64,000 nucleotides of DNA from Candidatus Peribacterales bacterium. Lineage in GTDB: Bacteria > Patescibacteriota > Gracilibacteria > Peribacterales > Peribacteraceae. The position numbers and the translations under genes are program-made. The notes under the pieces were generated by a model. It was not told the DNA's origin. It made no database searches and saw only the letters and a program-made list of their open reading frames with translations. Where the stretch lies: the NCBI GenBank assembly GCA_035289645.1, contig DATDWL010000012.1, forward strand, positions 1,818-65,817. The letters are read 5' to 3'. Numbering within the stretch: the first letter of the stretch is position 1; the number at the start of each line of letters is the position of its first letter. Positions 49,035 to 64,000 of this stretch are shown piece by piece.

Positions 49035-49345
49035 TATGCTATAGGGGAAAGAGTTTTTCTCTTACCGGATGCTGTCGCAAGCTCTTCTTCCAAGGATTCC
49101 TGCTGCGTGAGTCCGGCAGCAAGCACTTCGATGACTTTAAAGTGTTTGCGCTTACTCAATGGTTTGCATTCGCCAATAAGCACCATATCGCCTTCGTGCA
49201 CAGACATACCATTTGTATCCGCAAGAAACTTTTTACTGACAGGAAACCTCTTCTTGTAGATCGGATGAGTCACATAGCGAGTCACCACCACTGCAACGGT
49301 ATTCTGCATCTTTGCCGATGTAACGGTGCCCTTTTTTGTGCGCAT
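49034..49345 (-). CDS. rpsQ: 30S ribosomal protein S17
   Basis: [34 protein letters not shown] at 49345 chosen because the longer ORF overlaps rpmC. Confidence 0.85.
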
Positions 49346-49370
49346 GGGATGAAGAAAAGAGAGGAGTGAA

Positions 49371-49649
49371 TTAACGCCGCGAAGCGGCTTTTGTCTCGGC
49401 GACATCGGGTTTCTTGGCCGCCGGAGCAGGCATGGTAGAGCGAGAAGCTTGCATCCGCAACGAAGAAAGCACCGTAAACATGCGAGCAAGCTGGCGCTTA
49501 GCATCGTTGAGAAGATGAGTATTTTTTTCGGATCCGCCACCTATGCCGTGATGCAAGCGGGCAATCACATGGCGCTGCTCATCGATTTCTCTCAGGAGAT
49601 CGCTTTCCTGCATATTCAGAAGCTCGACCATGGTGAGAATTTTCGTCAT
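49371..49649 (-). CDS. rpmC: 50S ribosomal protein L29 (C-terminally extended)
   Basis: Position between rplP and rps[25 protein letters not shown] pattern. Confidence 0.8.
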
Positions 49650-50065
49650 GAACGGATGCGGTACACAGTCTTTGTTGTAACGGGAAGCTTATGCGAGGCT
49701 AAGCGCAACGCTTCGCGTGCGGATTCGGGAGTGAGACCGTCGAGTTCGAACAAAATCGTGCCGGGTTTTACCAACGCAACGTAATATTCCACGGAACCCT
49801 TTCCCGATCCCATCGGCACCTCGGCAGCCTTGCGAGTGATTGGCTTGTGGGGAAAAATGCGAATCCAGATTTTTCCTCCTCGCTTTAGGTTATGCGTCAT
49901 TGCTCGTCTTGCAGCCTCGATCTGTCGCGACGTAATCTCTCCCGGTTCCAAAGCCTTTAACCCCACCGAGCCGAATGCAAGTTGAGCACCGCGAGTCGCC
50001 TTGCCGCGGAACGATCCGCGGAGGCGGTGCTGTTTCCGATACTTGGTCTTAATGGGTTGCAGCAT
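49646..50065 (-). CDS. rplP: 50S ribosomal protein L16
   Basis: [16 protein letters not shown].. Confidence 0.95.
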
Positions 50066-50071
50066 AAATAA

Positions 50072-50737
50072 TCAGGAGAGTTCGATGGAAGCAGACTGGG
50101 CTTCTTGGACTTTTTTAAACACCATTCCGGTATACACCCACACCTTGACTCCAATCGTTCCGTAACCCGTCATGGAATGGACGACGGCAAATTGAATATT
50201 GGCGCGAAGGGTATGGAGCGGGACATTGCCGTCTTTAAAGAGATCAGCACGTGCGATCTCCGCACCGTTCAAACGGCCGGCGACGCGCACTTTTACCCCA
50301 AGAACGCCAGCTTGCATCGCCTTTTCGATTCCCATCTTCACCGCTCGCCGGTAGGGCATCCTCCGCTCAATTTGTCCTTTAATCGTCTCGGCAATAACGT
50401 AGGCATTGGCATCGGGATTTCGGATCTCACGAATATTCACTTCGAAAGGTTCATGGAATTTTAGTTCGAGGCTCTTTCGGAGCTCTTCGATTGCCGCACC
50501 CTGCTTGCCGATAATAATGCCCGGCTTGCTCGTATGAATGGCAACGGACACCTTCTTCGTCCGATCAATCTCGATACGCGAAACTCCGGCATCCTTCACC
50601 TTGTCCATGATGAAGCGTCGAATGAAGACGTCATCACGGAAGATTTGCCCGTATTTCTTTCGTCCAGCAAACCACATACTCGGCCACTGCGTCGTAATGC
50701 CGAGTCGGAAGCCGTTGGGGTTTACTTTTTGTCCCAT
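50072..50737 (-). CDS. rpsC: 30S ribosomal protein S3
   Basis: MGQKVNPNGFRLGI.. KH domain. Confidence 0.95.
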   Translation of the reverse strand: MGQKVNPNGFRLGITTQWPSMWFAGRKKYGQIFRDDVFIRRFIMDKVKDAGVSRIEIDRTKKVSVAIHTSKPGIIIGKQGAAIEELRKSLELKFHEPFEVNIREIRNPDANAYVIAETIKGQIERRMPYRRAVKMGIEKAMQAGVLGVKVRVAGRLNGAEIARADLFKDGNVPLHTLRANIQFAVVHSMTGYGTIGVKVWVYTGMVFKKVQEAQSASIELS

Positions 50738-50752
50738 AGAGGAGAGGAAGAG

Positions 50753-51289
50753 TTATTCGCCGCGCGAATTGTGGCGGAAAGTACTAAAGGTATTGGCATC
50801 ACGGATATCCTGAGTCCCGGCACTCGCATCATCATTCTGAGCATCCCTTTTCGTTGGATTCCCCGGAGCCTGTGCAATGGGGCCTGCAACAATTTCCGCT
50901 TCGAGCGGCTTCTTCTCCGAAGATTTTTGCTTCTTCACTTCCTTCTCCTTCTTACCTGCGGGAACAATCACGCCAAGTTTGACAGTGATGTGACTCGTAA
51001 ACTTATCAATCGGCCGAGATCGACCACGTGCCATGGGAATGGCGCGCTGATATGCCGGCCCTCTGTTAACAATAAGCTCTTTGATATAGAGATCTTTCCT
51101 CTTTTGCCCGTCGTTCTGCTCGGCATTCGCCATGGCGGAATACACTACTTTATAGAGAATGAGAGCGCCTTTTTTTGGCAGCTTTTGGAGAGTTGATAAT
51201 GCATCCACAACGCTCATACGACGAATCATCGCCGCAACGAGATTCGTTTTTTTGGGAGCAAGCCGAACTTGGCGAAGATGCGCTTTCAT
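50753..51289 (-). CDS. rplV: 50S ribosomal protein L22 (long C-terminal extension)
   Basis: MKAHLRQVRLAPKKTNLVAAMIR.. then an extension of about 60 aa. Confidence 0.9.
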   Translation of the reverse strand: MKAHLRQVRLAPKKTNLVAAMIRRMSVVDALSTLQKLPKKGALILYKVVYSAMANAEQNDGQKRKDLYIKELIVNRGPAYQRAIPMARGRSRPIDKFTSHITVKLGVIVPAGKKEKEVKKQKSSEKKPLEAEIVAGPIAQAPGNPTKRDAQNDDASAGTQDIRDANTFSTFRHNSRGE

Positions 51290-51295
51290 AAATAA

Positions 51296-51628
51296 TTATT
51301 TCTTCGGTGCGGAAGGAGCCGGTACCGGTGCTCCGGCTGTGGCAACACCGGCAGCCTGAGCCGCCGCCATTTTACCGCCGTGCACTCTGAATTTACGCGT
51401 GTAAGAGAACTCTCCAAGTTTGTGTCCCACCATCTGCTCCGTGATATACACGGGAAGAAAATCTTTACCGTTATGGACAGCAAAGGTGAATCCCACGAAC
51501 TCTGGCGGCACGTCCGATCGACGCGACCAGGTTTTGATGATCCGCTTATCGCCCTTCTCGATCATTTGCATGACCTTCTTGTAGAGCTTTGGATCAACGT
51601 ATGGGCCTTTTTTGGAGGAGCGAGCCAT
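51296..51628 (-). CDS. rpsS: 30S ribosomal protein S19 (Ala/Pro-rich C-terminal tail)
   Basis: [22 protein letters not shown]. Confidence 0.93.
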
Positions 51629-51659
51629 GGGTGATAGAAAATAGACTGAAGAGTAGGAG

Positions 51660-51739
51660 GTATTACGTATTATGTATTATGTATTGAACGATACCTGGTA
51701 ATTCATACCTGATACCTAATACCTGATACCTGATACCCG
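51660..51739. repeat. Heptad-periodic inverted repeat in the rplB-rpsS spacer
   Basis: Plus strand: four heptads GTATTAC/GTATTAT/GTATTAT/GTATTGA (51660-51687), 3-nt gap, then seven in-register heptads ATACCTG/GTAATTC/ATACCTG/ATACCTA/ATACCTG/ATACCTG/ATACCCG (51691-51739). GTAT and ATAC cores are complementary. Confidence 0.85.
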
Positions 51740-51783
51740 TGTTGGAGAGGATAGATTGCATAGAAGCAAAAACAAAGGAAGAA

Positions 51784-52638
51784 CTACCGTTTTCTCCGCC
51801 CCAATTTCTTCGGGCGGCGACGGACGATCCATCGATTCGAAGGATGTTTTCGGCTGCGGGTCGGCACTCCATACGCCGGCTTTCCCCAGGGAGTCTTTGG
51901 TCCCTTCAAACCAATCGGCGAGTGTCCCTCCCCTCCTCCATGCGGGTGATCCACAGCGTTCATCGATTTTCCAAGTACCTTCGGACGGCGTCCCATCCAG
52001 CGCGTACGTCCGGCCTTTCCGATATTTACCAAGTTATGCTCGCCATTGCTCACGATGCCAATCGAGGCGTAACACGTTTTAGGCACATACCGAACCTCAC
52101 CACTTGGCAACTGCACCTGAGCATACTCACCATCGAGCGATGTGAGTGTTGCAGATGATCCTGCACTGCGACACACGGTCCCTTTCTTGCCCATTTCGAT
52201 TTGCACATTGTAGATCTTAAATCCGACAGGAATATGCATGAGCTGCATGCGATTTCCCGTTTTGATCTTCGTTCGCTCTGCACACACGATCGTATCTCCG
52301 ACTTTCATCCCTTCGGGAGCAAGAACGTAGCGACGCTCACCGTCGTTGTACATTGCGAGCGCAATCCAAGCACTGCGATTTGGATCGTACTCGATGGAAC
52401 GGATTGCCGCCGGAATCCCCTGCTTGTCGGCTTGCTGAAAATCAACAATGCGTGCAAGGCGCTTATGGCCGCCACCGCGCCTTCGCACGGTGACATGTCC
52501 GAACCCGTTACGACCGGAAATTCGTTTCTTGCCATAGGTGAGCGATTTATCGGGTTTGATCTTTGTCAGTACCGAGTAATCGATCATCGTCATCTGCCTG
52601 CGGCCGGGAGTCGTCGGCTTGAATGTTTTGAGCACCAT
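51784..52638 (-). CDS. rplB: 50S ribosomal protein L2
   Basis: MVLKTFKPTTPGRR..HPHGGGEG. Confidence 0.95.
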   Translation of the reverse strand: MVLKTFKPTTPGRRQMTMIDYSVLTKIKPDKSLTYGKKRISGRNGFGHVTVRRRGGGHKRLARIVDFQQADKQGIPAAIRSIEYDPNRSAWIALAMYNDGERRYVLAPEGMKVGDTIVCAERTKIKTGNRMQLMHIPVGFKIYNVQIEMGKKGTVCRSAGSSATLTSLDGEYAQVQLPSGEVRYVPKTCYASIGIVSNGEHNLVNIGKAGRTRWMGRRPKVLGKSMNAVDHPHGGGEGHSPIGLKGPKTPWGKPAYGVPTRSRKHPSNRWIVRRRPKKLGRRKR

Positions 52639-52640
52639 AT

Positions 52641-52937
52641 TTACGAAGTGATGGAAGTGAGATCAAGAGCTTTACTCTTCTCTGTAAGAGTCACGAGGGC
52701 ACGGCGTTCTGCCTCCCTTTTTTCGATGAACTTACCGCGTCCGATCATCCGGCGTTTGGGGACGACCTTGAGTATGCGCACTTTTATCGGCTCCACCCCA
52801 TAATGAATTCGCAGCGCGTTTTTCACATCCACCTTCGTTGCATCCGCATGAATGCGGAGCACGTATGTACGACCGATCTTCAGACGCTCTGCTTTTTCGG
52901 TGACAACGGAGCCGAGAATGACTGTTGTAAGATTCAT
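52641..52937 (-). CDS. rplW: 50S ribosomal protein L23
   Basis: Position between rplD and rplB. ..VTEKAERL..YVLRIHADATKVDVKNAL. Confidence 0.88.
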   Translation of the reverse strand: MNLTTVILGSVVTEKAERLKIGRTYVLRIHADATKVDVKNALRIHYGVEPIKVRILKVVPKRRMIGRGKFIEKREAERRALVTLTEKSKALDLTSITS

Positions 52938-53638
52938 TTCGAGGAAGGAGAGGAAGAGGCTGCTGCTTTTTTCATTTTTGGCTTCGTCTCCATCTTCACT
53001 TTCTTATTCTTGATGGAAAAAATATCCTCGGCTGCCTTCAGCGCTTCTACTAGGAAAATAAGAGTATGGGCGCCAAGGACATCCTCTGGATTAAGGTACT
53101 GCGCCAGTATCGTCTTCACGCCGGGAACATTCCTGGCTCCGCGCTCCAGCGCCTCCATGTGGGAAGGCATAATGAATACGATTTTGCGACCGGGAGAGAC
53201 AGGAAGTTTTATCAAAAGAGAAACGAGGGACTTTGTCTTGTGATCGCTGTCGTACGTTTCGAGTCCGATGATACGGCCGGCCTTCGCGCTCGCCGTTAGA
53301 CAGGAAAAGAGGGCATTGCGGCGCATTTGCCTCGGCATGGCTTTCACAAAGTTTCGTTCGTTCCGAGGGCCAAATGCTTTTGCTCCTCCTTTAAGGAGGT
53401 TCGCACTGGCAGAGCCACGTCGTGCACGACCTGTTCCTTTTTGCTGGTAGAGCTTTCGCGTACTTGCGGTCACTTCGCTCCTCGTTTTTACATGGGCAAT
53501 GGGCTTCCTGCGATTGCTTTGCTGACGAACCAACGCTTCATGCATGAGCCCTGTATTAATTGGTGCATCGAAGAGTTGAGGTGGGAGTTCCATCGTCCCC
53601 TTTTTTGCGCCGGTACTGGTGTAGACATCAATGGTCAT
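52934..53638 (-). CDS. rplD: 50S ribosomal protein L4 (Lys-rich C-terminal extension)
   Basis: ..QKGTGRARRGS...LLKGGAKAFGP.. Confidence 0.9.
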   Translation of the reverse strand: MTIDVYTSTGAKKGTMELPPQLFDAPINTGLMHEALVRQQSNRRKPIAHVKTRSEVTASTRKLYQQKGTGRARRGSASANLLKGGAKAFGPRNERNFVKAMPRQMRRNALFSCLTASAKAGRIIGLETYDSDHKTKSLVSLLIKLPVSPGRKIVFIMPSHMEALERGARNVPGVKTILAQYLNPEDVLGAHTLIFLVEALKAAEDIFSIKNKKVKMETKPKMKKAAASSSPSSK

Positions 53639-54246
53639 TTCTGTTCAGGAAGAGATTCGATATTGATAATAACCGTAGAACCATTGGGACCCGGCACAGG
53701 ACCTTTCACCGCAATCACGTTCTCCGCGGGATCCGAAATTACCACAGAACAATTATGGAGGGTGATTTGATCGCTCCCCATGCGTCCCGGGAGCTTCTTA
53801 CCACTCTGCACACGACCAGGCTTGGCGCGGCATCCGACTGATCCTGGTTCTCTGTGCTGGTGCGAACCATGCGTCCAAGGACCTGCGGAAAAGTTATAAC
53901 GCTTGATGACACCGGCAAATCCCTTCCCCTTGGAGACACCGACGACCGACACCATGCTCTCTGGAGGAATAAGTTCTGCAGTAAGAGTTTTTCCTACTTC
54001 ATATCCTTCGAGTGAAGGAACTTGGAATTCCCTCTCACAGGCAAAGCGTGTGTGCTCCTTTCCCTTTCTCGTCTTCCATTTCTTTCCCTGAATACCAAGA
54101 ACAAGGGCATCATACCCATCGCGATCCTTCATACGATGACGAACGACCGTATTTGGGTCTACCTTTAAATATGTCACAGGGACGACCGTGCCATCTTCTT
54201 GAAAGACGCGTGACATGCCGATTTTGGTCGTAATGAGTCCAAGCAT
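53635..54246 (-). CDS. rplC: 50S ribosomal protein L3
   Basis: MLGLITTKIGMSRVF..GKGFAGVIKRYNF. Confidence 0.93.
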   Translation of the reverse strand: MLGLITTKIGMSRVFQEDGTVVPVTYLKVDPNTVVRHRMKDRDGYDALVLGIQGKKWKTRKGKEHTRFACEREFQVPSLEGYEVGKTLTAELIPPESMVSVVGVSKGKGFAGVIKRYNFSAGPWTHGSHQHREPGSVGCRAKPGRVQSGKKLPGRMGSDQITLHNCSVVISDPAENVIAVKGPVPGPNGSTVIINIESLPEQK

Positions 54247-54418
54247 GGATTCAGAGGTTCAGGTCTGGCTTATCAGCTTTCCTCGACCGAGTCCGTCCGC
54301 CTAAGGCGGATGGACGAGTGGAGAGGCTGAGGCAGGACACAATGAACAAAAGCCGGGGAACTGTACCTGCCGCTTGACCCTTCCGCAAGGAATTTGAGGT
54401 AAAAAATGCAGATAATAC

Positions 54419-55201
54419 TCATTCGGCACGCGAATGTCCTGTCCACCCCGGGGGAGTGTCGCCGTCGTTTTCGTACCAAGACTGGAATCCATCGCCAATA
54501 ATGGAAACATCAATGTCGCCGTCGTTATCAACATCTTCGGTCGAAACGCTAAGAACACCACTTGATCCATTCGCAATCGAATGACGCCGCGATCCTGTTA
54601 ATCCGCCATTTTCGAACCACACAATGGCATCGCGATCGAATTGCACTTCGACACGATCTTTATCACCATCGCCATCCAAATCACCAAATGCACTTTGGAT
54701 GATAACTTGATGGGGAGAATCCTCCTCTGCATCTTCCGGCAACATCGTCATAGTCCGAATCGTGCGCCGCGTGGGAGTGGGCGGAGACGATGACGAACTT
54801 GGTATCTGTTCTTCACTGATTTTTCCACCTTCTTCCACAGCCTCTTCTGCTTCCCCTCCCCTTACTTCTAACTGCTCCTCTTCACCACCCCGCAATGAAA
54901 ATAATAATTTCAAATCATCCCATCGTTGTTTTCCCCACTGCACTACATGCATCACCCACGATGTGCTCTTGTGCCATACCCACGTCGCACTCCATTCAAC
55001 ATCCATCAAAAAAGGCTGTATTCGCTCATCCCACAGCACCACTTCCACCACTTGAATAAATGATTGTTGTGGCGCATCGACATTTTTTTCGCGCTCACGA
55101 ATGACGATGAACAGAGACCATGCGACAAGACACACGATGAGGAAGATGAATATCCTGCCCAAGGTGAGTGAAAGCTTTATACGTCGATACATGATCAACA
55201 T
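54419..55201 (-). CDS. N-terminally anchored FG-GAP/VCBS-like repeat protein
   Basis: TM helix IFIFLIVCLVAWSLFIVI. DLDGDGDKDRV..FENGG and DVDNDGDIDVSI..WYEND fit FG-GAP calcium-binding repeats. Confidence 0.6.
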   Translation of the reverse strand: MLIMYRRIKLSLTLGRIFIFLIVCLVAWSLFIVIREREKNVDAPQQSFIQVVEVVLWDERIQPFLMDVEWSATWVWHKSTSWVMHVVQWGKQRWDDLKLLFSLRGGEEEQLEVRGGEAEEAVEEGGKISEEQIPSSSSSPPTPTRRTIRTMTMLPEDAEEDSPHQVIIQSAFGDLDGDGDKDRVEVQFDRDAIVWFENGGLTGSRRHSIANGSSGVLSVSTEDVDNDGDIDVSIIGDGFQSWYENDGDTPPGWTGHSRAE

Positions 55202-55312
55202 AGTACGACACAGCGCCTATGAGCGCGAGCAAGCCTGATACGTGACTAAAAACATACGTGTAAGAAAAAACCGGGCACTGGCCCGGCTTTTCTATAGATG
55301 ATCAAATGAGTT

Positions 55313-56476
55313 TTATTCAATCAAACATGCGGCGCTGCAACCGTCACCATCGATCATATTGCCATCATCGCACGTCTCTGGAGCTTCGAGGATTCCATTC
55401 CCACAGGAAGCAGCGTCGACAGGAGCGGATTCCGCGGAAGAAGATGATGCATCGGGAAGTGTTGGAACAATAATCTGGCACATGCTCGGTGATCCCGCGC
55501 ACTCCCAACCAGATTCAATGGTGCACGCAACAGAGCAACCATCATCCGCCACGGTATTGCCATCATCGCATGTTTCGGTACCGCGCATCGTTCCATCGCC
55601 ACAGACTGGCGCAGGATCATCGGCAACATTGCGAGGATCGGTTTCACCCGCATCAACAACACCATCATGGTCAGCGTCTTCGGCGCCATCGAGCGCTCCG
55701 CCGCCATCCGTATCAGCACTCTGCGGATTTGTTTCCCCGGCATCCACGATGCCATCGCCATTGAGGTCTTCGACGCCGTTATGCAAACCATCCTGATCGC
55801 TGTCAAGACAGGACACGCGGTACACTGCATCTGCATCGCCGAGTGAAGTGCCATCGACCATCACGTAGTAACGCTTACTGCCATGGAGCTGCATCGGCGA
55901 GCCATCGGCTTCCTTTGTATCGAGTGCTCCGTACTGTTCTCCTGTAACTGCAAGTTCGGCAGGAGAAAGCCAAAATCTACCATCGAAGAGTTCTCGACCG
56001 GTTTTTCCTGCCTTCCTATTATTGGTTTCTTGATTTGAGTATTCATATCCCCATGAACGGATGCTGCCAAACGTGTGCGCCATCGTAACATCGATAGCGG
56101 GCGCAATGTCATCGGGACAATCAAAAATCACGTGTGCATCGGCCGGTGCGATAAATCCGCGTGCAGCTTCTGCCTTCGTGAAGTAGTGGATCTGAATTCC
56201 TCCTTGTTCTCCAATAAGTTGCGCAGAGAAATCAGGACTTGGTTGCTCAATTGGTTCGAGTGCCAGCGTTGGGACAAAGAGTGATTGTACCGATAGCGCT
56301 TCGGCAACGGGAGTGGATGACTCCCCGCCAACCTGTGCCACCTCGGCTGTTCCTTGTCGGAGATAGAGGAAAACGACAATACCAATAAGTGCTACGAGGA
56401 GGATGACCTCACACACGACTCGTACGACTGGGAATGGTTCATCATCCTGGAATGTTGGAGTGCTTGATTCGAGCAT
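55313..56476 (-). CDS. N-terminally anchored protein with thrombospondin type-3-like Ca-binding repeats and two Cys-rich CxDG(N) repeats
   Basis: DSDQDGLHNGVEDLNGDGIVDAGETNPQSADTDGGG..DADHDGVVDAGETDP. CGDGTMRGTETCDDGNTVADDGCSVACTIE and CGNGILEAPETCDDGNMIDGDGCSAACLIE. Confidence 0.6.
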   Translation of the reverse strand: MLESSTPTFQDDEPFPVVRVVCEVILLVALIGIVVFLYLRQGTAEVAQVGGESSTPVAEALSVQSLFVPTLALEPIEQPSPDFSAQLIGEQGGIQIHYFTKAEAARGFIAPADAHVIFDCPDDIAPAIDVTMAHTFGSIRSWGYEYSNQETNNRKAGKTGRELFDGRFWLSPAELAVTGEQYGALDTKEADGSPMQLHGSKRYYVMVDGTSLGDADAVYRVSCLDSDQDGLHNGVEDLNGDGIVDAGETNPQSADTDGGGALDGAEDADHDGVVDAGETDPRNVADDPAPVCGDGTMRGTETCDDGNTVADDGCSVACTIESGWECAGSPSMCQIIVPTLPDASSSSAESAPVDAASCGNGILEAPETCDDGNMIDGDGCSAACLIE

Positions 56477-56494
56477 AAAAAGAGTTGGAAAAAA

Positions 56495-57079
56495 TTAACG
56501 GGAATGGAGTGAGCGCACTCTTGTATAAAGGAGCGCACCACAGGTGAAAGTGAAACTGAAAATTGCAGGAATCGCAAGAGGCAGTCCTGTTGGAGCAAGC
56601 GGCGCGGCGCGGTGAACGGATTCCATTGTCTCGATTGGAGGAGCTCGACGCACGGCATGGGGAACCGGTGTCGGCAATGGAGTCTCCTCTTCTTCGACGA
56701 GTGGACGATCCGGAATACGCACCGCTCGGTTATCGCTCTCTGGAAGATTTTCATCGCTTAACATTCTCGGCCGCGCGATATTATTACTCTGAAATACTTC
56801 CGCACGCGGATCATCATGGACATCACCCGGCGTTCCTGCAGGATGCGGCGTATGACCTTGTATTGTAGAACTGGGTAAAGACGGACGAAGAGGAATCAAC
56901 GCATCGGACCCAGGCGAAGCAGGGGCAGAAGCGGAAGAAGACGAAATAGAACTCGATGATCCGCCGGTTTCTTCTTCATCACCCTGCAAAAATTGCCCGG
57001 GTGTGATGTACGCAAAGGCACTTTCTGCTGAAGAAAACGCAGTAAACATGACGAGGGCGAAACGTAGGAAAATAATCAT
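56495..57079 (-). CDS. Secreted Pro/Ser-rich protein with C-terminal LAPTG + hydrophobic + basic (sortase-type) signal
   Basis: Signal peptide MIIFLRFALVMFTAFSSAESAFA. C-terminus LAPTG-LPLAIPAIFSFTFTCGALLY-TRVRSLHSR. Confidence 0.5.
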   Translation of the reverse strand: MIIFLRFALVMFTAFSSAESAFAYITPGQFLQGDEEETGGSSSSISSSSASAPASPGSDALIPLRPSLPSSTIQGHTPHPAGTPGDVHDDPRAEVFQSNNIARPRMLSDENLPESDNRAVRIPDRPLVEEEETPLPTPVPHAVRRAPPIETMESVHRAAPLAPTGLPLAIPAIFSFTFTCGALLYTRVRSLHSR

Positions 57080-57145
57080 GGGTATGTATGTTACTTATAT
57101 TATACATTATTATTATAATATTTCAAGCACCTCCTATGTGCACTA

Positions 57146-58708
57146 CTAAAGTGAATAGGTAACTCCTCTCTCCGGCATCACAATATCCGCGGTCATGGAT
57201 TTTTTCATGCGCTCCATCAGCGCAAGCATCCCCTGCTCTTCCCCGTGCACAAGGAATAATTTTTTCACCCCTTGGATAGCGGTGATGTACGAATCAAGAT
57301 CACGCATATCCGCATGGCCGGAGTACGCGTTGATGTAGACGGTTTCCGCACGCTTGCGATACTCTTGATCGAAGATGCGAACGGTGGAAATGGATTTTTC
57401 GATGATGCGGCGCCCGAGCGTGTTTTCCGCCATGTAGCCGACAGCGAGCACCGTGGATTTTGGATCTTCGATGTAATTTGTCAGATGGTGGCGGATGCGG
57501 CCGCCTTCGCACATGCCGGAGCCCGCCATAATGATCATGGGGCCGGAATACGTGTTCAATTTTTTACTCTCCTCCACGGAGGTCGTATATCGCACAAGTG
57601 AAAACTGGAATGGATTATGGGCGCGCGAGAGGAATTGTTCGTACATCGCGCGGTCGTAGCACTCCGGATGCTTCATAAAAATTTCCGTCACGCGGGAGGC
57701 GAGGGGCGAATCAATGATGATGGGAACCTCGGGAATGTTCTTCTCGTCCCAGAGGAGATGCAGATCGTAGAGAATCTCCTGCGTTCGTTCGAGTGAAAAC
57801 GCAGGGATCAGCACCTTTCCTCCCCGCGCGACAGTCCGTTGTATGACTTCTGCAAGGCGGTGTTTTGCGGTGAGAACATCCTCGTGGAGACGATTACCAT
57901 ACGTGCTCTCGCAAATGAGCATATCGACGGGCGGCATCGGTTCTGGATCGCGAATAATGGGAAGAGTTGCTCGACCAAGATCGCCACTGAAGCCAATACG
58001 AAGAACTGGTACGTCATGCTGAGTGGAGCGACCCTGAGCCGCGTCGAAGGGGAGCGAAATCGAAGCATCTCGCATTAACATCGATGCTGAATCTCCTGAT
58101 CCTTGCGACGTGCTTCGACTACGTTCCGCCCCGCTCTGGGGGGCTTCACTTCGCTCAGCATGACGTACATGACGTAATTGATCTATCTCCAATACCACCA
58201 TCGCAGCGCCAAGCACATGCCCTGCATCTAAAAATTTTGCTTTGATGCCGGGTAATACCTCAAACCATTCACTGTAATTCTTGCCAACAAAAAGTTCTGC
58301 GCAGTTCGCTGCATCTTCTTGCGTGTAGAGCGGCCCCTCGCACGCCATCATCGTATCGGCACAGTGCTTGCGGAAAAATTCCTCATCTTTCTCCTGCAGG
58401 TATCCCCCATCCTGCAACATAACGGGGGCAAGATCCTTCGTCGCATAGGTGCAATAGATTGGACCGCGATACCCGCGCTTATGGAGAACGGGGATGCGTC
58501 CCACATGATCCATATGGGCATGTGTGAGGATAACAGCATCGATATCCTTCGATGGATCGAATACAAATGTTGAATTTTTTTCCGCAGACGCTTTGCGGCT
58601 TCCTTGAAACAATCCGCAATCAAGGAGAATGCGATGCGCGCCGATCTGGAGTTCGTGGCAAGAGCCTGTTACCTCCCGGGCCGCACCGTGGGAAATTAGC
58701 TTCATCAC
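57146..58708 (-). CDS. MBL-fold beta-CASP RNA-metabolising hydrolase (RNase J/CPSF-like) carrying an in-frame ~53-aa insertion
   Basis: GAAREVTGSCHEL, ILTHAHMDHVGRIP, DAGHVLGAA, FSGDLGR, ESTYGNRLH, C-terminal GHAD.. motifs. Confidence 0.85.
   Translation of the reverse strand: MMKLISHGAAREVTGSCHELQIGAHRILLDCGLFQGSRKASAEKNSTFVFDPSKDIDAVILTHAHMDHVGRIPVLHKRGYRGPIYCTYATKDLAPVMLQDGGYLQEKDEEFFRKHCADTMMACEGPLYTQEDAANCAELFVGKNYSEWFEVLPGIKAKFLDAGHVLGAAMVVLEIDQLRHVRHAERSEAPQSGAERSRSTSQGSGDSASMLMRDASISLPFDAAQGRSTQHDVPVLRIGFSGDLGRATLPIIRDPEPMPPVDMLICESTYGNRLHEDVLTAKHRLAEVIQRTVARGGKVLIPAFSLERTQEILYDLHLLWDEKNIPEVPIIIDSPLASRVTEIFMKHPECYDRAMYEQFLSRAHNPFQFSLVRYTTSVEESKKLNTYSGPMIIMAGSGMCEGGRIRHHLTNYIEDPKSTVLAVGYMAENTLGRRIIEKSISTVRIFDQEYRKRAETVYINAYSGHADMRDLDSYITAIQGVKKLFLVHGEEQGMLALMERMKKSMTADIVMPERGVTYSL
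58009..58168. mobile_element. MITE-like palindromic element inserted in frame in the beta-CASP gene
   Basis: Perfect 15-bp terminal inverted repeats GTACGTCATGCTGAG (58009-58023) and CTCAGCATGACGTAC (58154-58168). Interior carries CCTGAGC-CGC-GTCGAAGG (58033-58050). Confidence 0.7.
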
Positions 58709-58762
58709 AATGATTGTACACGAACAATGGCACTCACATTGTTACAATCAGCCATCTCAACC

Positions 58763-59233
58763 TTACTCTTCCATTTGGAGTAAATACTCGAGCATTTTTC
58801 GACGATTCTGTTTGCTTGCATGCATTACATTATCGGGATCAATACCCACTACTCTTCCCATGACTTCATCTCGAGGATTCTCGTCACCTCTCCTAAGGAG
58901 AAGCAAGGTTCTTATTTCTGCCCTTGATCTCAACCGGCCACCCCGCACATCAGGGATAAAAATGGGCTGCTTCCAAAAAAAAGTAAATTGATCGATGCGT
59001 CCGAAATCTTCTAATACTACATCACCTCGAAGTACTGGGTAATCGTGACACGCGAACGATTGCCCTCGTATTCCTAAGTTGCCCTCCTGCGCTTCTCCGA
59101 ACAGATAGCGATCTGATCCGGAACGAATAGCGCTATTACCGTACCGCTGCTTTAGGTAACGCAAACCCTGCGTGTACGTAGTATCGATGTACGCATCACA
59201 ATTGTTTCCAATGGGTCGAATGCGTTCATGCAT
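58763..59233 (-). CDS. Hypothetical protein
   Basis: 156-aa ORF. No family recognised. Confidence 0.4.
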   Translation of the reverse strand: MHERIRPIGNNCDAYIDTTYTQGLRYLKQRYGNSAIRSGSDRYLFGEAQEGNLGIRGQSFACHDYPVLRGDVVLEDFGRIDQFTFFWKQPIFIPDVRGGRLRSRAEIRTLLLLRRGDENPRDEVMGRVVGIDPDNVMHASKQNRRKMLEYLLQMEE

Positions 59234-59329
59234 AGGAAAAACAAGAAAATGATGAGTGGCGCATTATACATGGATGTATCGAGAAGGGTCAACTAGGATT
59301 CTCTGTGACTTCTTAGTAGAATTGGCTGG

Positions 59330-60868
59330 ATGAAAGCAGAATCTCATCAGGCAACACAAGGAGAAGATCTAAGCCGCTCATCACTCAGCATTCTCTGCTG
59401 CGTGTTTGTTCTTCTTACATCCTTCTTCACATACTTCTTCCACTACGATCAGCCCCAAGCGCCATTCTGGGACGAAAACTACTACATTACGGATGCCGAG
59501 AGGATTTTGAATGGCGTGTTTTTCATGCAGATTCATCCACCGCTCGGCAAATTACTCATTGCTGCCGGAGAGGCAATATTTGACCCCAATGAGAGTGATG
59601 CGCAGTTTTTAGAAACAGAACATGCGGGGGAATTCCCCCAAGATTTTTCGTTTGTTGGATACCGATTTTTTCCCGCACTCCTCGGATGGCTCACCGTTCC
59701 CCTCTTCTTCCTGTGCCTCCTGCTTTTAACGCGGAATCCCCTTGTCGCAACGCTCCTCTCGTTCCTCATTATTTTTGATAATGCACTCCTCGTCCATAGC
59801 CGGGGCGCCATGCTGGATGCTCCGCTGCATTTCTTCTTTGTGCTCACTTGCCTCCTGTTTCTCCTCCTTGTTCATACGAAGAACCGGAGCAAAATTTTCC
59901 TGTGGCTCTCCGGCGGCCTTGGCATCAGCATCGGTCTTGCTGTAGCAACAAAGATGAACGGAGCTATCCTCTTCTTGTTCTTCCCTGCACTCCTCTGGCA
60001 CCTGCGAAGAGAATGGAAATCCGCACTTGCAACATGCGTTCTTAGCGGCAGCGCACTTTTGATTGCATTCATGGGCGTCTGGTATGTACACCTCAGCCGC
60101 ATGGAAATCATTCGTCCTGCACTGCGGGATAGCGGTTGGTACACGGCTTCGGAAGAATATAAGGAAATTCTGCAGCAAGGCGCTCAACGCTCGCTCCTCG
60201 CATTCCCCATCATGCTTCGCGATCATCTGCAGTACGCGCCATTCTACAATCAAGGAATCCCCAAGTTGGATCTTTGCAAACCCGATGAGAACGGCAGCCC
60301 TGTGTTTCTCTGGCCGTTTGGCGTCAGCACCATTAACTATCGGTGGGCGTCGGCTGGTGAAAATACGTATCGCTACCTTTACCTCGTTCCAAATCCTGCC
60401 ATATGGTTTGTGGGACTTATGGGAATTCTTCTCTCTGCCGCATTCCTCCTCTCCCCTCTCTTCGGAGCGAAGCGCTCATTGTATGTTGATCGTGAACGAG
60501 CATTCATTGGCACTGTATTCCTGATGATCTATATGGGATACGTCGCAACGTTCAGCATGATGGACCGCGTCCACTTCCTCTATAGCTACTTCCCGGCGCT
60601 CATCATAAGTTTCCTACTCTTTGGCATCGTCTTCTCCTCCGTACGGGCAATCGGCTCCTTCCACTTCACAGAGGAGCGAAAAACCCTCGTCGCCATGTTC
60701 CTTGCCTGCCTCATTTTCCTCTGCTTCCAAATCTATCGCCCATTCACCTATTACGAACCGATCACGAATGATGCCGTAAAAAATCGATCGATCCTCAGGC
60801 TCTGGAACCTCCATTGCGTTGGGTGCGAAAAGCCAAGCTCAATCGTGCGACATCAGTGTGATGCATGA
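59330..60868 (+). CDS. GT39/PMT-family (dolichyl-phosphate-mannose-protein mannosyltransferase-like) membrane glycosyltransferase
   Basis: More than 10 TM helices. First-loop motif FWDENYYITDAERIL..IHPPLGKLLIA resembles the DE-containing loop 1 of the PMT/ArnT-type GT-C fold. Confidence 0.7.
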   Translation: MKAESHQATQGEDLSRSSLSILCCVFVLLTSFFTYFFHYDQPQAPFWDENYYITDAERILNGVFFMQIHPPLGKLLIAAGEAIFDPNESDAQFLETEHAGEFPQDFSFVGYRFFPALLGWLTVPLFFLCLLLLTRNPLVATLLSFLIIFDNALLVHSRGAMLDAPLHFFFVLTCLLFLLLVHTKNRSKIFLWLSGGLGISIGLAVATKMNGAILFLFFPALLWHLRREWKSALATCVLSGSALLIAFMGVWYVHLSRMEIIRPALRDSGWYTASEEYKEILQQGAQRSLLAFPIMLRDHLQYAPFYNQGIPKLDLCKPDENGSPVFLWPFGVSTINYRWASAGENTYRYLYLVPNPAIWFVGLMGILLSAAFLLSPLFGAKRSLYVDRERAFIGTVFLMIYMGYVATFSMMDRVHFLYSYFPALIISFLLFGIVFSSVRAIGSFHFTEERKTLVAMFLACLIFLCFQIYRPFTYYEPITNDAVKNRSILRLWNLHCVGCEKPSSIVRHQCDA

Positions 60869-61001
60869 GGTCGGGTGGAAATTCTAAGCAATAAGCACTA
60901 CGTTCTAAAACAGTTTAGTGCTTAGAATTTAAGATTTAGGGCTCCCATGCTCATTTTTTGAAACAAAAAAATTGACTCTCAATCAGACTTGATTAGAGTG
61001 A

Positions 61002-61406
61002 ATGACTATGGAGGATCGTTCTATGCCAAGAAATCGGCTGGGAAAGTACTTTGCAAAACTGGATGGATTACAAAAACCTGATGAAGATCCCAACGATTCA
61101 TTCCCGCCATATCAGTCCGATGATATCAATCATTGGCATGATAACCATGAGCCACCACCGCCACCAGAATCTCCGCCCGCACTTCTCACAACTAAGAGAG
61201 ATCTATTATTCATTCGTACAGCCATTATTGCTGTGCTTATCGGTATCGGATTTCTTGGTCCATGTGGGGCACAATTTTGTGTGCGCCAAAAACAAATGAG
61301 AGTGAAAGCAGAAAAAGACCTCATGGGACAAGGTAAGTTGATTGATCAGTTGCGTGAAAGGGTGAAGTCGCTCGAGGAGGAACTACGAGACGCTAAAAAA
61401 AAATGA
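61002..61406 (+). CDS. Hypothetical single-pass membrane protein with C-terminal coiled coil
   Basis: Pro-rich segment, TM IIAVLIGIGFLG, then KLIDQLRERVKSLEEELRDAKKK. Confidence 0.4.
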   Translation: MTMEDRSMPRNRLGKYFAKLDGLQKPDEDPNDSFPPYQSDDINHWHDNHEPPPPPESPPALLTTKRDLLFIRTAIIAVLIGIGFLGPCGAQFCVRQKQMRVKAEKDLMGQGKLIDQLRERVKSLEEELRDAKKK

Positions 61407-61464
61407 TTGTCGGCTCATCCAGGAATCGAACATCAAAAATAGGTACAACAAAAAAGCCCTTCAT

Positions 61465-61578
61465 CTTGGCGGCGGCCTACTCTGGCGTGACGCATATCAC
61501 ACTACCATCGGCGCTCCCGGGCTTAACTGCCGTGTTCGGGATGGGAACGGGTGTACCCCCGGGGCTAAAACCACCAAG
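61465..61578 (-). rRNA. rrf: 5S rRNA
   Basis: The reverse complement reads CTTGGTGG..CCCGTTCCCATCCCGAACACGGCAGTTAAGCCC..GCGCCGATGGTAGT..GCCAGAGTAGGCCGCCGCCAAG, with paired termini. Confidence 0.9.
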
Positions 61579-61888
61579 ATAAAGGGCTTTGAACATCTAT
61601 TATAAAGAGGACAACCCCGCACCGGCATCCGCCTAGACGGACGACCGGTGCGAAGCAAATGTCCACATACTGCTTGCCTTACGACACATGAACAGCGATT
61701 TCCGTGCACACCCTCCTCCATTTACCCGAAGGCAAACGAAGAAGAGTAAAAGAAATGTCCTTGCTTTGAAAATCAAAGCAATCGCCCGTTCGTACTCCTA
61801 AGCTCAACACCTTGCGGTGCGTACACCTTGGAGCCGATCTAGCTCGTATTCTTCGAGCGGGCTTATGGGGAAAACTGATCTTGGGAGG

Positions 61889-61940
<52 letters not shown>

Positions 61941-62052
61941 TGCAATGCCACTGACGTGACAACAGGTACACCAGCGGTTCGTCCACTCCGGTCCTCTCGT
62001 ACTAGGAGCAGGTTCCCGCAGTTTTCCAAACGATAACGGAAGGTAGAGGCCA

Positions 62053-62097
<45 letters not shown>

Positions 62098-62110
62098 TGG
62101 CGAACAGCCA

Positions 62111-62169
<59 letters not shown>

Positions 62170-63052
62170 GCGCCGTCGCTGTGGGCGCTTGGGCGCGATA
62201 AGCCTGTTATCCCTAGCGTAACTTTTATCCGATGAGCGACAACCCACCCACGTGGTAAGAGCACAATAAATTATGCTCAGGTTGCCGGATCACTTTCGCC
62301 CGCTTTCGCGGCTGCTCGGCTCGTTGGCCTTACAGTGAGGCTGACTTGTGCGAATACACTTTCGCGCCGATTTCCATCCGGCGTAAGTCAACCATTGCGC
62401 GCCTCCGTTACTTTTTAGGAGGCAACCGCCCCAGTCAAACTACCCAGTAAGCACTGTCCTGCGGCATGTTTCATACACACAGTGAGAATCATCGGAACAC
62501 AAGGGTGGTATCTCAAGGTTGGCTCCACCCCGACCAAAGCCGGAGCTTCAAAGCCTCCCACCTATCCTGCGCAAGCAAACCAATGACTCAATGCCAACTT
62601 ATAGTAAAGCTGCATAGGGTCTTTTCGCCTTTCCGTTATGTGCACGGCATTTTTACCGTGTTTGCAATTTCACCGGGACTCGCGTCGAGACAGTGACCAG
62701 ACCGTTATACCATTCGTGCGGGTCGGAACTTCATTTCGTGTGGGAAACCTACGGTTTCCCCCACGGGCCCCCTTCCCTAACAAAGTATCGCTCCAGCGCG
62801 GCAGAGCCGCGCTTCGCGATGTCCTTTATATTGAAGTGGACTCGTAGGTTCCTTCCGGTGGCGAACCGGAAACTCAGGATCAAACCTGATCGCACATGAC
62901 GCCTGAAAGTGTCATCCCGAGTGATTTTGCGGAGCAAAATCGTATCGAGGGACACCTGACGATTGTTTTTTAATGAGCGCTCGATTGCGCACTCCCCTCT
63001 GTCGTCAGAGGGATCGGACTATATCATCATCCTTATAAGTGTCATCCTGCCT

Positions 63053-63088
63053 GCCCGGCGTAGTTCCGCAGCGCGGGACGAAGACGGG
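63053..63088. repeat. Hairpin module copy 1 (GYCSGSCGTAG-hairpin-CGAAGNYGG)
   Basis: GCCCGGCGTAG-TTCCGCAGCGCGGGA-CGAAGACGGG. Confidence 0.6.
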
Positions 63089-63178
63089 AGTAGCCCGAAT
63101 CCGCCTAAGCGGACGAGGGCGTAACGAAGGATGTTCCTTCATTTAGGACGCGTCGCGTGTAGTCTCTGAGGAGCCCAA

Positions 63179-63394
63179 TTATTCATTCCGTCCATTATAG
63201 CTAGGATGCTCATAAGGATGCTTTTTGTGCATCAATTCATGAATCCTTTTTCTCTCAGATTCGGTAATTTCATCATCTGAGATATCTTCTAAACGGAACA
63301 GTTCATTATACTCACTATTAGTAATGTATTCTGACCCCAAAGCTTTAATGTCTTCATCAGACATGTACCCTGGTTTCTTTTCCATATCTTTCAT
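63179..63394 (-). CDS. Intron-borne small acidic ORF, function unknown
   Basis: 71-aa ORF in a visibly AT-rich patch inside the intervening sequence. No LAGLIDADG, GIY-YIG, HNH or His-Cys motif visible. Confidence 0.3.
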   Translation of the reverse strand: MKDMEKKPGYMSDEDIKALGSEYITNSEYNELFRLEDISDDEITESERKRIHELMHKKHPYEHPSYNGRNE

Positions 63395-63778
63395 AGTGAG
63401 ATTTGGGAATAAATAATGGTTTCCTGCTGATTGTCCGCAGCAGACGGATTATCACTAAACACATTATACACTTAAATGTAATAATATGTCAAGTACCGCT
63501 GCATACTCGGATATTCCAGCATATAGCGACGTTTTGCACTGTTTATATGAATGGCCTGATGCGCATGATCTGGTGATCGATGCGACCCCGCCTCCGCCTG
63601 AGCGCAGTTTATCCTGAGCTTGTCGAAGGAGCGGGCAGGCAACGGACTGATTCATCCCGCATTCGCGGGACAGTTCGACTTACATTAGGTTGGCAAAAAA
63701 TGCAGTTGAAATGAAAGAGATCATCGCGGAATCGTCCGTGATATTCCCCGTGTCTCACGGGGAAGACTCGTACCCTTG

Positions 63779-63814
63779 TCCGCCGTAGCCCCGCATGTGC
63801 GGGGCGAAGGTGGA
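63779..63814. repeat. Hairpin module copy 2
   Basis: GTCCGCCGTAG-CCCCGCATGTGCGGGG-CGAAGGTGG. Confidence 0.6.
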
Positions 63815-63873
63815 AAAAACACATTCTGAAAATTCCTCAGTGCTGATTCTTTCGAACCATTCGGGCAAGTATT

Positions 63874-63921
63874 GCCTCGGCGTAGTCTCGGCATCACGAA
63901 GTGATGACGGACGAAGCCGGG
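63874..63921. repeat. Hairpin module copy 3
   Basis: GCCTCGGCGTAG-TCTCGGCATCACGAAGTGATGACGGA-CGAAGCCGGG. Confidence 0.6.
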
Positions 63922-63927
63922 CCGACC

Positions 63928-63947
63928 ACCCGACAAGGAATTTCGCT
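63928..63947 (-). rRNA. rrl: 20-nt 23S micro-exon (E. coli 1932-1951 equivalent)
   Basis: Minus strand AGCGAAATTCCTTGTCGGGT is identical to the E. coli block containing U1939. Confidence 0.8.
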
Positions 63948-64000
63948 CATCGATGTTACAACCTATTTTCATAGGTGCGTCAACATTTCTGTTAACGTCT
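63948..64000 (-). other. 3' end of a second intervening sequence at 23S site L1931 (extends beyond window)
   Basis: Sequence upstream of AGCGAAATTCC (..AACATCGATG) does not match the expected CCTAAGGT. The element ends in G (63948). Confidence 0.6.

Follow-up and report, generated by a model that had tools for sequence, protein, structure and literature searches.

Predicted group I introns flanking a 20-nt micro-exon in the 23S rRNA gene of a Candidatus Peribacterales bacterium

The 64,000-nt stretch of DNA analysed here (hereafter the window) comes from a Candidatus Peribacterales bacterium (assembly GCA_035289645.1, contig DATDWL010000012.1, positions 1,818 to 65,817) and ends, on its minus strand, inside a 23S ribosomal RNA (rRNA) gene of single-copy type that is interrupted twice around only 20 nt of conserved sequence. 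This locus raises the question of what the two inserts are, and how so short an exon between them could become part of a mature rRNA. The inserts lie after positions 1931 and 1951 of the Escherichia coli large subunit (LSU) rRNA and are therefore called L1931 and L1951. Their interpretation as group I introns, put forward in an earlier reading of the letters without database searches (the sequence-only reading), is supported by the present analysis. The 23S gene very probably carries group I introns at 1931 and 1951, as well as at 1917 on an overlapping contig, and these would be spliced by the ordinary mechanism.

The 3' part of the gene was matched by Rfam (LSU_rRNA_bacteria, 61782-62663, 840 bits), and upstream of this match the minus strand reads on as 23S sequence, AAGUUCCGACC..., to position 62731, where the 3' exon begins with AAGTTCCGACC. 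This exon spans ~950 nt and reaches model position 2912, while its identity is 82-88% to 23S of Peribacteria/Peregrinibacteria and ~72% to that of other phyla, which points to a Peribacteria-like bacterium of the Candidate Phyla Radiation as host. The exact E. coli 1932-1951 block, AGCGAAATTCCTTGTCGGGT, is found at 63947-63928. It is separated from the 3' exon by an insert of 1196 nt, and the 53 nt on its 5' side (64000-63948, to the window end) are non-rRNA. The break in collinearity, the length of the insert and the location of the block, all of which had been proposed from the letters, were borne out by our reading of the sequence and by alignment to E. coli; the 956 nt of collinearity proposed at the same time ended at the right position, with the length now given by Rfam as ~950 nt.

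When the 14-nt exon of the overlapping contig (see below), the 20-nt exon and the 3' exon were spliced in silico, they aligned end to end with 23S rRNA in 5426 of 5426 complete E. coli genomes, which excludes the alternative that 63928-63947 is not the 1932-1951 block. The first base of the spliced sequence (the A of AACGG) corresponds to annotated position 1917 in the 2903-nt rrl of NZ_CP027340, and we infer from the offset that it represents A1918 in the canonical 2904-nt numbering. This numbering fits the known pseudouridines at 1911, 1915 and 1917, each of which is a U. With A1918 as the first base, the junctions fall after U1931 and after U1951. As had also been noticed earlier, U is the last base of the 5' exon at L1951, and each insert closes with G (62732 and 63948). 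Elsewhere in the 3' exon, a 35-nt loop at 62229-62265 (minus strand) takes the place of 10 nt in the bacterial model (near model position 2430-2440); it is a small expansion segment, not an intron.

Group I structure of the 1951 insert

A permissive Rfam scan of 61400-64000, of the kind that the sequence-only reading had suggested, recovered a group I core as well as the LSU match. The L1951 insert was matched to RF00028 with 35.1 bits (E = 1e-6; gathering score 50) over 62995-63333, where the J6/7-P7 segment UCAGAGACUACACG and the J8/7-P7' segment GAUGAUAUAGUCC fit the consensus with high posterior probability. Furthermore, the insert could be aligned with 17 L1951 introns from Peribacteria/Peregrinibacteria genomes, giving an alignment of 18 sequences including the window copy (alignment A1). 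P1, P10, P2, P2.1, P3-P9 and P9.1 were drawn by hand from the window sequence, and the resulting 75 pairs were scored across the alignment.

This structure is strongly supported by covariation. In alignment A1, 92.9% of the cells are paired, compared with 34.6-42.0% when the 3' partners were slid by 1-3 columns, and 39 pairs have changed on both sides, i.e., are compensated. None of 500 shuffles came up to the alignment in paired fraction, in how many pairs were compensated or in covariation score, and two of the 500 attained the observed count of further pair types. Compensated pairs occur in P2, P3, P7, P8, P9 and the P9.1 hairpins, while P4, the greater part of P1, P10 and P7, and the J6/7 and J8/7 columns around the guanosine-binding helix P7 show no variation. 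The P3/P7 pseudoknot core, P3-P9, is thus present and backed by covariation. In all 18 sequences, a U stands at the 5' splice site, a G faces it in P1, and the intron ends in the terminal guanosine (omega-G).

The elements for splice-site recognition can also be identified. GCCCGA, which had been singled out as a P1 guide lying about 60 nt into the insert, occupies intron positions 62-67 and pairs with the exon sequence UCGGGU, with a U1951-G pair at the splice site; five of its six positions are invariant in the 18 introns, and its 3'-terminal A pairs in 13 of them. Directly 5' of the guide, ACUU pairs with AAGU of the 3' exon to form P10, three of its four positions being invariant and the first base being A in 15 introns and G in three. 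The P1 and P10 helices are 95-100% paired across the alignment, and P10 reaches 100% in the 18 sequences. The subfamily is characterized by GGUCG ... ACUUGCCCGAA, followed by a GNRA hairpin and then GCACUGAGGAAU. Among the matches listed for species-representative genomes, this signature is restricted to Candidatus Peribacteria/Peregrinibacteria.

The overlapping contig and the joining of the exons

Only the last 53 nt of the L1931 insert lie inside the window. The remainder was obtained from a metagenome contig of 1619 nt from the same population (L001, JGI 3300002502), which is identical to the window over the overlap and extends 331 nt beyond it (window position = 64332 minus L001 position). 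On this contig the complete L1931 intron is 283 nt long (L001 102-384) and scores 50.3 bits against RF00028 (E = 3e-11; gathering score 50), so that, together with the match and covariation of the L1951 insert, the group I proposal is supported for both inserts. Its guide, GCCUUAG, pairs with the exon sequence CUAAGGU as P1, and CGUU, just 5' of the guide, pairs with AGCG as P10. GCCTTAG was also present near the 5' end of at least 11 other L1931 inserts in the genome scan. Upstream of the L1931 intron, the contig carries a 14-nt exon, AACGGUCCUAAGGU (E. coli 1918-1931, L001 88-101), and 5' of that the 3' end of an L1917 insert with GAAGAUAUAGUCCGAUC, again ending in G. The rRNA gene variant, therefore, holds three inserts, at 1917, 1931 and 1951, and the predicted introns lie within 34 nt of exon. 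A metagenome scan for the remainder of the 23S gene yielded no further contig.

As a separate observation on this site, several 1931-site inserts elsewhere have no G directly before A1932 (e.g., ...GAAGACGAUC|AGCG), namely those of L125 (14379-15124, minus strand), L027, L011, L029, L035, L059, L084, L103 and L114. The L125 insert lacks the GCCUUAG guide, yet possesses a group I core and a LAGLIDADG gene.

According to the proposed mechanism, each intron would fold after transcription into a group I ribozyme. P1 would form between its internal guide and the final 6-7 nt of the exon before it, leaving a U-G wobble at the splice site, where an external guanosine would cleave. P10 would align the freed exon end with the 4 nt that open the following exon, and attack by this end after the terminal G would ligate the two exons. 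No order of splicing would be imposed on the introns, each being able to act independently, and the mature 23S rRNA would have its helices 69-71 restored. The sequence, the positions of the inserts, the core with its covariation and the family membership are established here; splicing and ligation are predicted from the structure.

How the micro-exon is ligated had been raised as a question, but no special mechanism seems to be needed, for P10 and P1 both find room on it. In the 20-nt exon, AGCG (the first 4 nt) takes part in P10 with the L1931 intron and UCGGGU (the last 6 nt) in P1 with the L1951 intron, while the CUAAGGU of the 14-nt exon pairs with the GCCUUAG of the L1931 intron. Judging from these pairings, the two exons would be just long enough to hold the P10 of the intron on their 5' side and the P1 of the intron on their 3' side. 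Since a micro-exon carries both upstream P10 and downstream P1, ordinary independent splicing can join the exons.

Several observations weigh against this reading. The L1951 copy of the window itself stays under the Rfam gathering score (35.1 versus 50 bits), because it contains large peripheral insertions; a compact relative of 404 nt (L010) reaches 62.3 bits on the same model, above the threshold. The L9 loop of the window copy, probably a tertiary-contact loop, is ACGA, compared with the GNRA loop GCGA in the family and in contig L002, and this replacement could make a tertiary contact weaker. The 1.6-kb metagenome contig, outside the window, is the sole source for the L1917 intron and for the greater part of the L1931 intron. 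Another contig, L125, switches to a different 23S variant and intron set past window position 62121. Finally, a group I intron at L1931 of Simkania has been reported as unspliced, according to the title of a reference in PMC1995217.

Among the alternative explanations, the one that survives best leaves the introns real and questions their attachment to the 64 kb, which would be an assembly chimera between related Peribacteria populations, crossing near 62040-62121 in conserved 23S sequence. L125, from the same sample as L001 (JGI 3300002502), is 100% identical to the window over 49330-62121 (12.8 kb). All 26 differences between the two fall in 62122-62662 (L125 12793-13333), i.e., in ~540 nt of 23S exon, and several of them are compensated pairs. 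The introns of L125 differ as well: the one at L1951 measures 958 nt, the one at L1931 measures 746 nt and carries a LAGLIDADG gene, and at L1917 there is none. Given this divergence, the link between the intron set of the window and its flanking genes could be an assembly join. In the same sample, the intron variant of the window occurs only as the separate 1.6-kb contig L001. L003, which carries the same L1951 intron and its open reading frame (ORF), shows a second mosaic pattern among samples: over its positions 1-170, compared with L001 295-460, the L1 hairpin is different, and the 3' tail of the L1931 intron is ~10-15% diverged. However, the chimeric contig could equally be L125, and real recombination, in the form of intron homing with co-conversion of the flanking exon, gives an identical pattern. 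We consider a chimeric attachment a serious possibility that falls somewhat short of probable; the contrast between L125 and the window would come from an assembly join within conserved rRNA or else from the exchange of an rRNA segment between strains. Since the 20-nt exon lies between an L1931 and an L1951 intron in either variant, the finding is unaffected.

A second alternative concerns the RNA. Neighbouring introns with similar cores might act jointly or use distal sites, so that the 20-nt or 14-nt exon would be skipped, leading to defective 23S rRNA and lower ribosome output. Such skipping has been seen for a 23-nt exon of phage Twort orf142 and a 34-nt exon of Coxiella 23S, and engineered Tetrahymena introns placed in tandem reproduced it (PMC10136302). 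Here, P4-P6 and J6/7 are near-identical between the L1931 and L1951 introns. Nevertheless, their guides differ (GCCUUAG in L1931 and GCCCGA in L1951), P3 differs (CUCAAC/GUUGGG versus CGUCGC/GCGACG), P7 differs by one compensated pair, and differentiated splice-site recognition elements favour exon inclusion (PMC10136302). Exon skipping of this kind is judged unlikely.

It is far less probable still that the inserts are retained, or excised without ligation in the manner of RNase III, with loss of the 20-nt piece or fragmentation of the 23S rRNA as the outcome. Non-intron insertions, thought to be intervening sequences (IVSs) of RNase III type, are indeed known in rRNA genes of the Candidate Phyla Radiation (CPR), but the known IVS sites lie elsewhere in 23S (23IS2 and 23IS4; PMC11270868), and the Simkania report is the point that speaks for retention. 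Against both outcomes, the group I core of the L1951 insert is complete and covaries, with P1, P10 and omega-G in place, no inverted repeat or long stem joins the ends of 62732-63927, and the loss of 1932-1951 (helices 70/71) would delete universally conserved rRNA. An RNase III-processed IVS was rejected on account of the wrong sites (1931/1951) and the missing end-joining stem. A group II intron was likewise rejected, the permissive Rfam scan of 61400-64000 having given no match to such a family.

Peripheral insertions and the L6 reading frame

The features of the locus are collected in Table 1. Compared with compact members of the family (~400-450 nt), the L1951 intron of the window has extra sequence in six places: L1, the P2.1 region, P5 (A+T-rich), L6 (251 nt), P8 (~110 nt) and the 3' tail (~150 nt). 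The addition in L1 is a 45-nt hairpin between GGUCGG and the guide, which is why GCCCGA lies ~60 nt into the intron instead of ~15. The intron would thus represent a conserved core of ~400 nt that has grown to 1196 nt by lineage-specific hairpins and an ORF-bearing insert in L6. In L9 (63001-63004, minus strand), a single-base polymorphism was observed, the loop being ACGA in the window, L001, L003 and L004, and GCGA in L002 (1213-1216).

Table 1. Coordinates of the rRNA exons, intron elements and associated features in the window.
Feature	Coordinates	Strand	Description	Basis
5S rRNA	61464-61578	-	downstream of 23S	Rfam match
23S rRNA 3' exon	61782..62731	-	E. coli 1952 to 3' end	Rfam, sequence reading, E. 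coli alignment
Predicted L1951 group I intron	62732..63927	-	1196 nt, starts GGUCGG, omega-G at 62732	RF00028, family alignment, covariation
P9 region and 3' tail	62732..63012	-	P9 at 63012-62995, loop ACGA; then P9a, A-rich linker and P9.1 hairpins; lineage-specific 3' extension of ~150 nt after conserved GGAACC, ending at omega-G	helices with compensatory changes in alignment A1
3' half of core (P7, P3 3' strand, P8, J8/7)	63017..63164	-	P7, GACUA (63164-63160) with UAGUC (63021-63017); P8, 63149-63145 with 63033-63029, enclosing ~110-nt insert	Rfam alignment, pair counts in alignment A1
71-codon sense ORF in L6	63179..63394	-	L6 closed by P6, CCCAA (63407-63403) with UUGGG (63178-63174)	ORF listing
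P3 5' strand, P4, P5 and A+T-rich P5 extension	63425..63531	-	P3, CGUCGC (63531-63526) with GCGACG (63156-63151), compensatory changes; P4, 63521-63516 with 63430-63425, invariant; P5, 63511-63508 with 63437-63434, A+T-rich extension between strands	pair counts in alignment A1
Sigma-70-type consensus in P5 extension	63463..63492	-	TTGACA-18 nt-TATAAT	pattern match
P2 hairpin	63844..63859	-	UGGUUC-GAAA-GAAUCA, GNRA loop	6/6 pairs compensated, 99% of cells paired
Internal guide of L1951 intron	63861..63870	-	ACUU 63870-63867 (P10), GCCCGA 63866-63861 (P1)	sequence, alignment A1
20-nt micro-exon	63928..63947	-	AGCGAAAUUCCUUGUCGGGU, E. coli 1932-1951	sequence, E. coli alignment
Last 53 nt of predicted L1931 group I intron	63948..64000	-	two GAAA-capped hairpins, omega-G 63948	overlap with L001

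The L1951 insert had earlier been described as packed with palindromic repeats rather than a homing endonuclease gene. The absence of an endonuclease gene stands, while the palindromes turned out to be peripheral hairpins of the intron, and a sense ORF of 71 codons is present. A hairpin module, CGGC-UUCG-UC...GA-CUAC-GCCG, occurs in three copies in the intron (63878-63919, 63780-63813 and 63054-63088, minus strand), and no UUCG...CUAC module with hairpin was found elsewhere in the 64-kb window; a genome-wide repeat of the repetitive extragenic palindromic (REP) or miniature inverted-repeat transposable element (MITE) type was rejected because the module is confined to the intron within these 64 kb. 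A stricter search by structure suffered from a high background. The module is also carried by relatives (L013:4263, L040:4069, L079, L103 and L120). Its base is conserved (pyrimidine mismatches flanking U-A), its tip is variable, and it sits in L1, P2.1, P6 or P8 depending on the member. A role as tertiary-contact receptor or as protein-binding site is possible.

The 71-codon ORF in L6 is longer than in 99.4% of shuffles and is encoded identically on four short metagenome contigs. Similarly, all ten inserts with a long L6 (the window, L027, L038, L049, L075, L103, L113, L115, L122 and L125) contain a sense ORF of 50-80 codons, well above the length in shuffles (P 0.000 to 0.078). The predicted 71-aa product has neither a Pfam match nor a homing endonuclease motif, and only itself was found among 5.8 billion + 1.8 billion proteins. 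Its single-sequence AlphaFold model consists of three helices (pLDDT 70), with no fold match in the PDB at E below 5. The L6 ORFs of different members show no significant mutual similarity except where they overlap the conserved RNA core. The 71-codon ORF, the sole long sense ORF in the L1951 insert, gives no sign of a LAGLIDADG, GIY-YIG or HNH endonuclease, and a degenerate endonuclease remnant was rejected for want of a Pfam match or protein relatives; the L1931 intron, with 283 nt, is too small for an endonuclease gene.

At a distance of 69 nt before the ORF begins, the P5 extension contains TTGACA-18-TATAAT (63492-63463), the sole 12/12 match to the sigma-70-type consensus in the whole window on both strands. 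A match of at least 10/12 is found at the equivalent place in nine of the ten ORF-bearing introns of the family and in none of the eight compact ones, and the element may function as a promoter. L1951 introns outside the Peribacteria family encode ~150-aa LAGLIDADG proteins. It is tempting to speculate that, in the Peribacteria L1951 family, the endonuclease gene has been replaced by a sigma-70-type promoter in the P5 extension and an L6 ORF of 50-90 codons, open in every long-L6 member yet unrelated in sequence, though we regard this as a doubtful proposal. Expression of these ORFs would make the rRNA intron a carrier of fast-evolving orphan proteins produced inside the rRNA operon, and the cassette of promoter and orphan ORF, should it prove real, would represent a novel type of intron cargo.

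Occurrence elsewhere and comparison with known systems

Species-representative genomes were scanned for a 1932-1951 block that is not followed by A. The numbers of intron-bearing genomes are lower bounds, and the genome of the window itself is not among the matches listed. The scan gave at least 119 loci, many of which merely represent the A1952G variant (GAGTTCC), while at least about 45 are true L1951 inserts. L1931 and L1951 inserts occur together, hence with the same 20-nt exon, at no fewer than 17 loci, and all three inserts (1917, 1931 and 1951) are present at six or more, found in Acidimicrobiaceae (L034 and L092), Actinomycetota (L051 and L086), Omnitrophota (L067) and a gammaproteobacterial metagenome-assembled genome (L046).

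The 1931 and 1951 positions had been named as known group I sites, which the literature upholds (PMC1995217; PMC11270868). Introns at L1931 were reported from Simkania, Thermotoga and Synechococcus, and at L1951 from Coxiella, and Synechococcus C9 carries L1917 and L1931 together (Haugen et al. 2007, PMC1995217). In CPR bacteria, introns of the 23S gene were first noted by Brown et al. 2015, as cited in PMC11270868. In the survey by Tsurumaki et al. 2024 (PMC11270868), 82% of CPR 23S genes held insertions, with as many as 16 in a single rRNA gene; the group I hot spots 23IS6-8 lay at 1917, 1931 and 1952, and the group I introns in 23S that lacked an ORF numbered 222. The view that the arrangement in the window is unusual does not hold for such organisms (PMC11270868): tandem introns are already documented for CPR bacteria, and the present case is real and largely ordinary.

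Its value is that of a clean, structurally validated case, in which three predicted group I introns crowd around 34 nt of exon, split into pieces of 14 and 20 nt, in the helix 69-71 region of a bacterial 23S gene. Pipelines for the annotation and alignment of CPR rRNA must remove such introns at the exact junctions. The tight packing also provides a natural test of how near-identical tandem ribozymes avoid the skipping of micro-exons, a question studied so far only in Twort, Coxiella and engineered Tetrahymena constructs.

One of the closest known systems is the set of CPR hot spots (PMC11270868), which agrees with the window in its three insertion sites, in the host radiation, in having more than one intron per gene and in the frequent lack of an ORF. 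Unlike here, the genes at these sites are mostly of the LAGLIDADG_1 type, and the survey does not describe three adjacent introns with 14-nt and 20-nt exons, the Peribacteria L1951 subfamily or L6 ORFs that are not endonucleases. In phage Twort, introns 2 and 3 of orf142 are likewise similar group I introns around a micro-exon, of 23 nt; that gene, in contrast, is a protein-coding phage gene, for which exon skipping has been documented (PMC10136302). Synechococcus sp. C9 (L1917, L1931 and L2593; PMC1995217) has L1917 and L1931 in one gene, implying the same 14-nt exon 1918-1931, whereas all its introns carry full-length LAGLIDADG genes and an L1951 intron is missing. Coxiella burnetii, with Cbu.L1917 and Cbu.L1951, resembles the window in having two group I introns in the helix 69-71 region, one of them at L1951, with a short exon (34 nt) in between. 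Its L1951 intron, however, is 720 nt long and encodes a 157-aa LAGLIDADG protein (PMC1995217), and an L1931 intron is missing from Coxiella; its 23S gene is also one in which exon skipping has been shown experimentally (PMC10136302).

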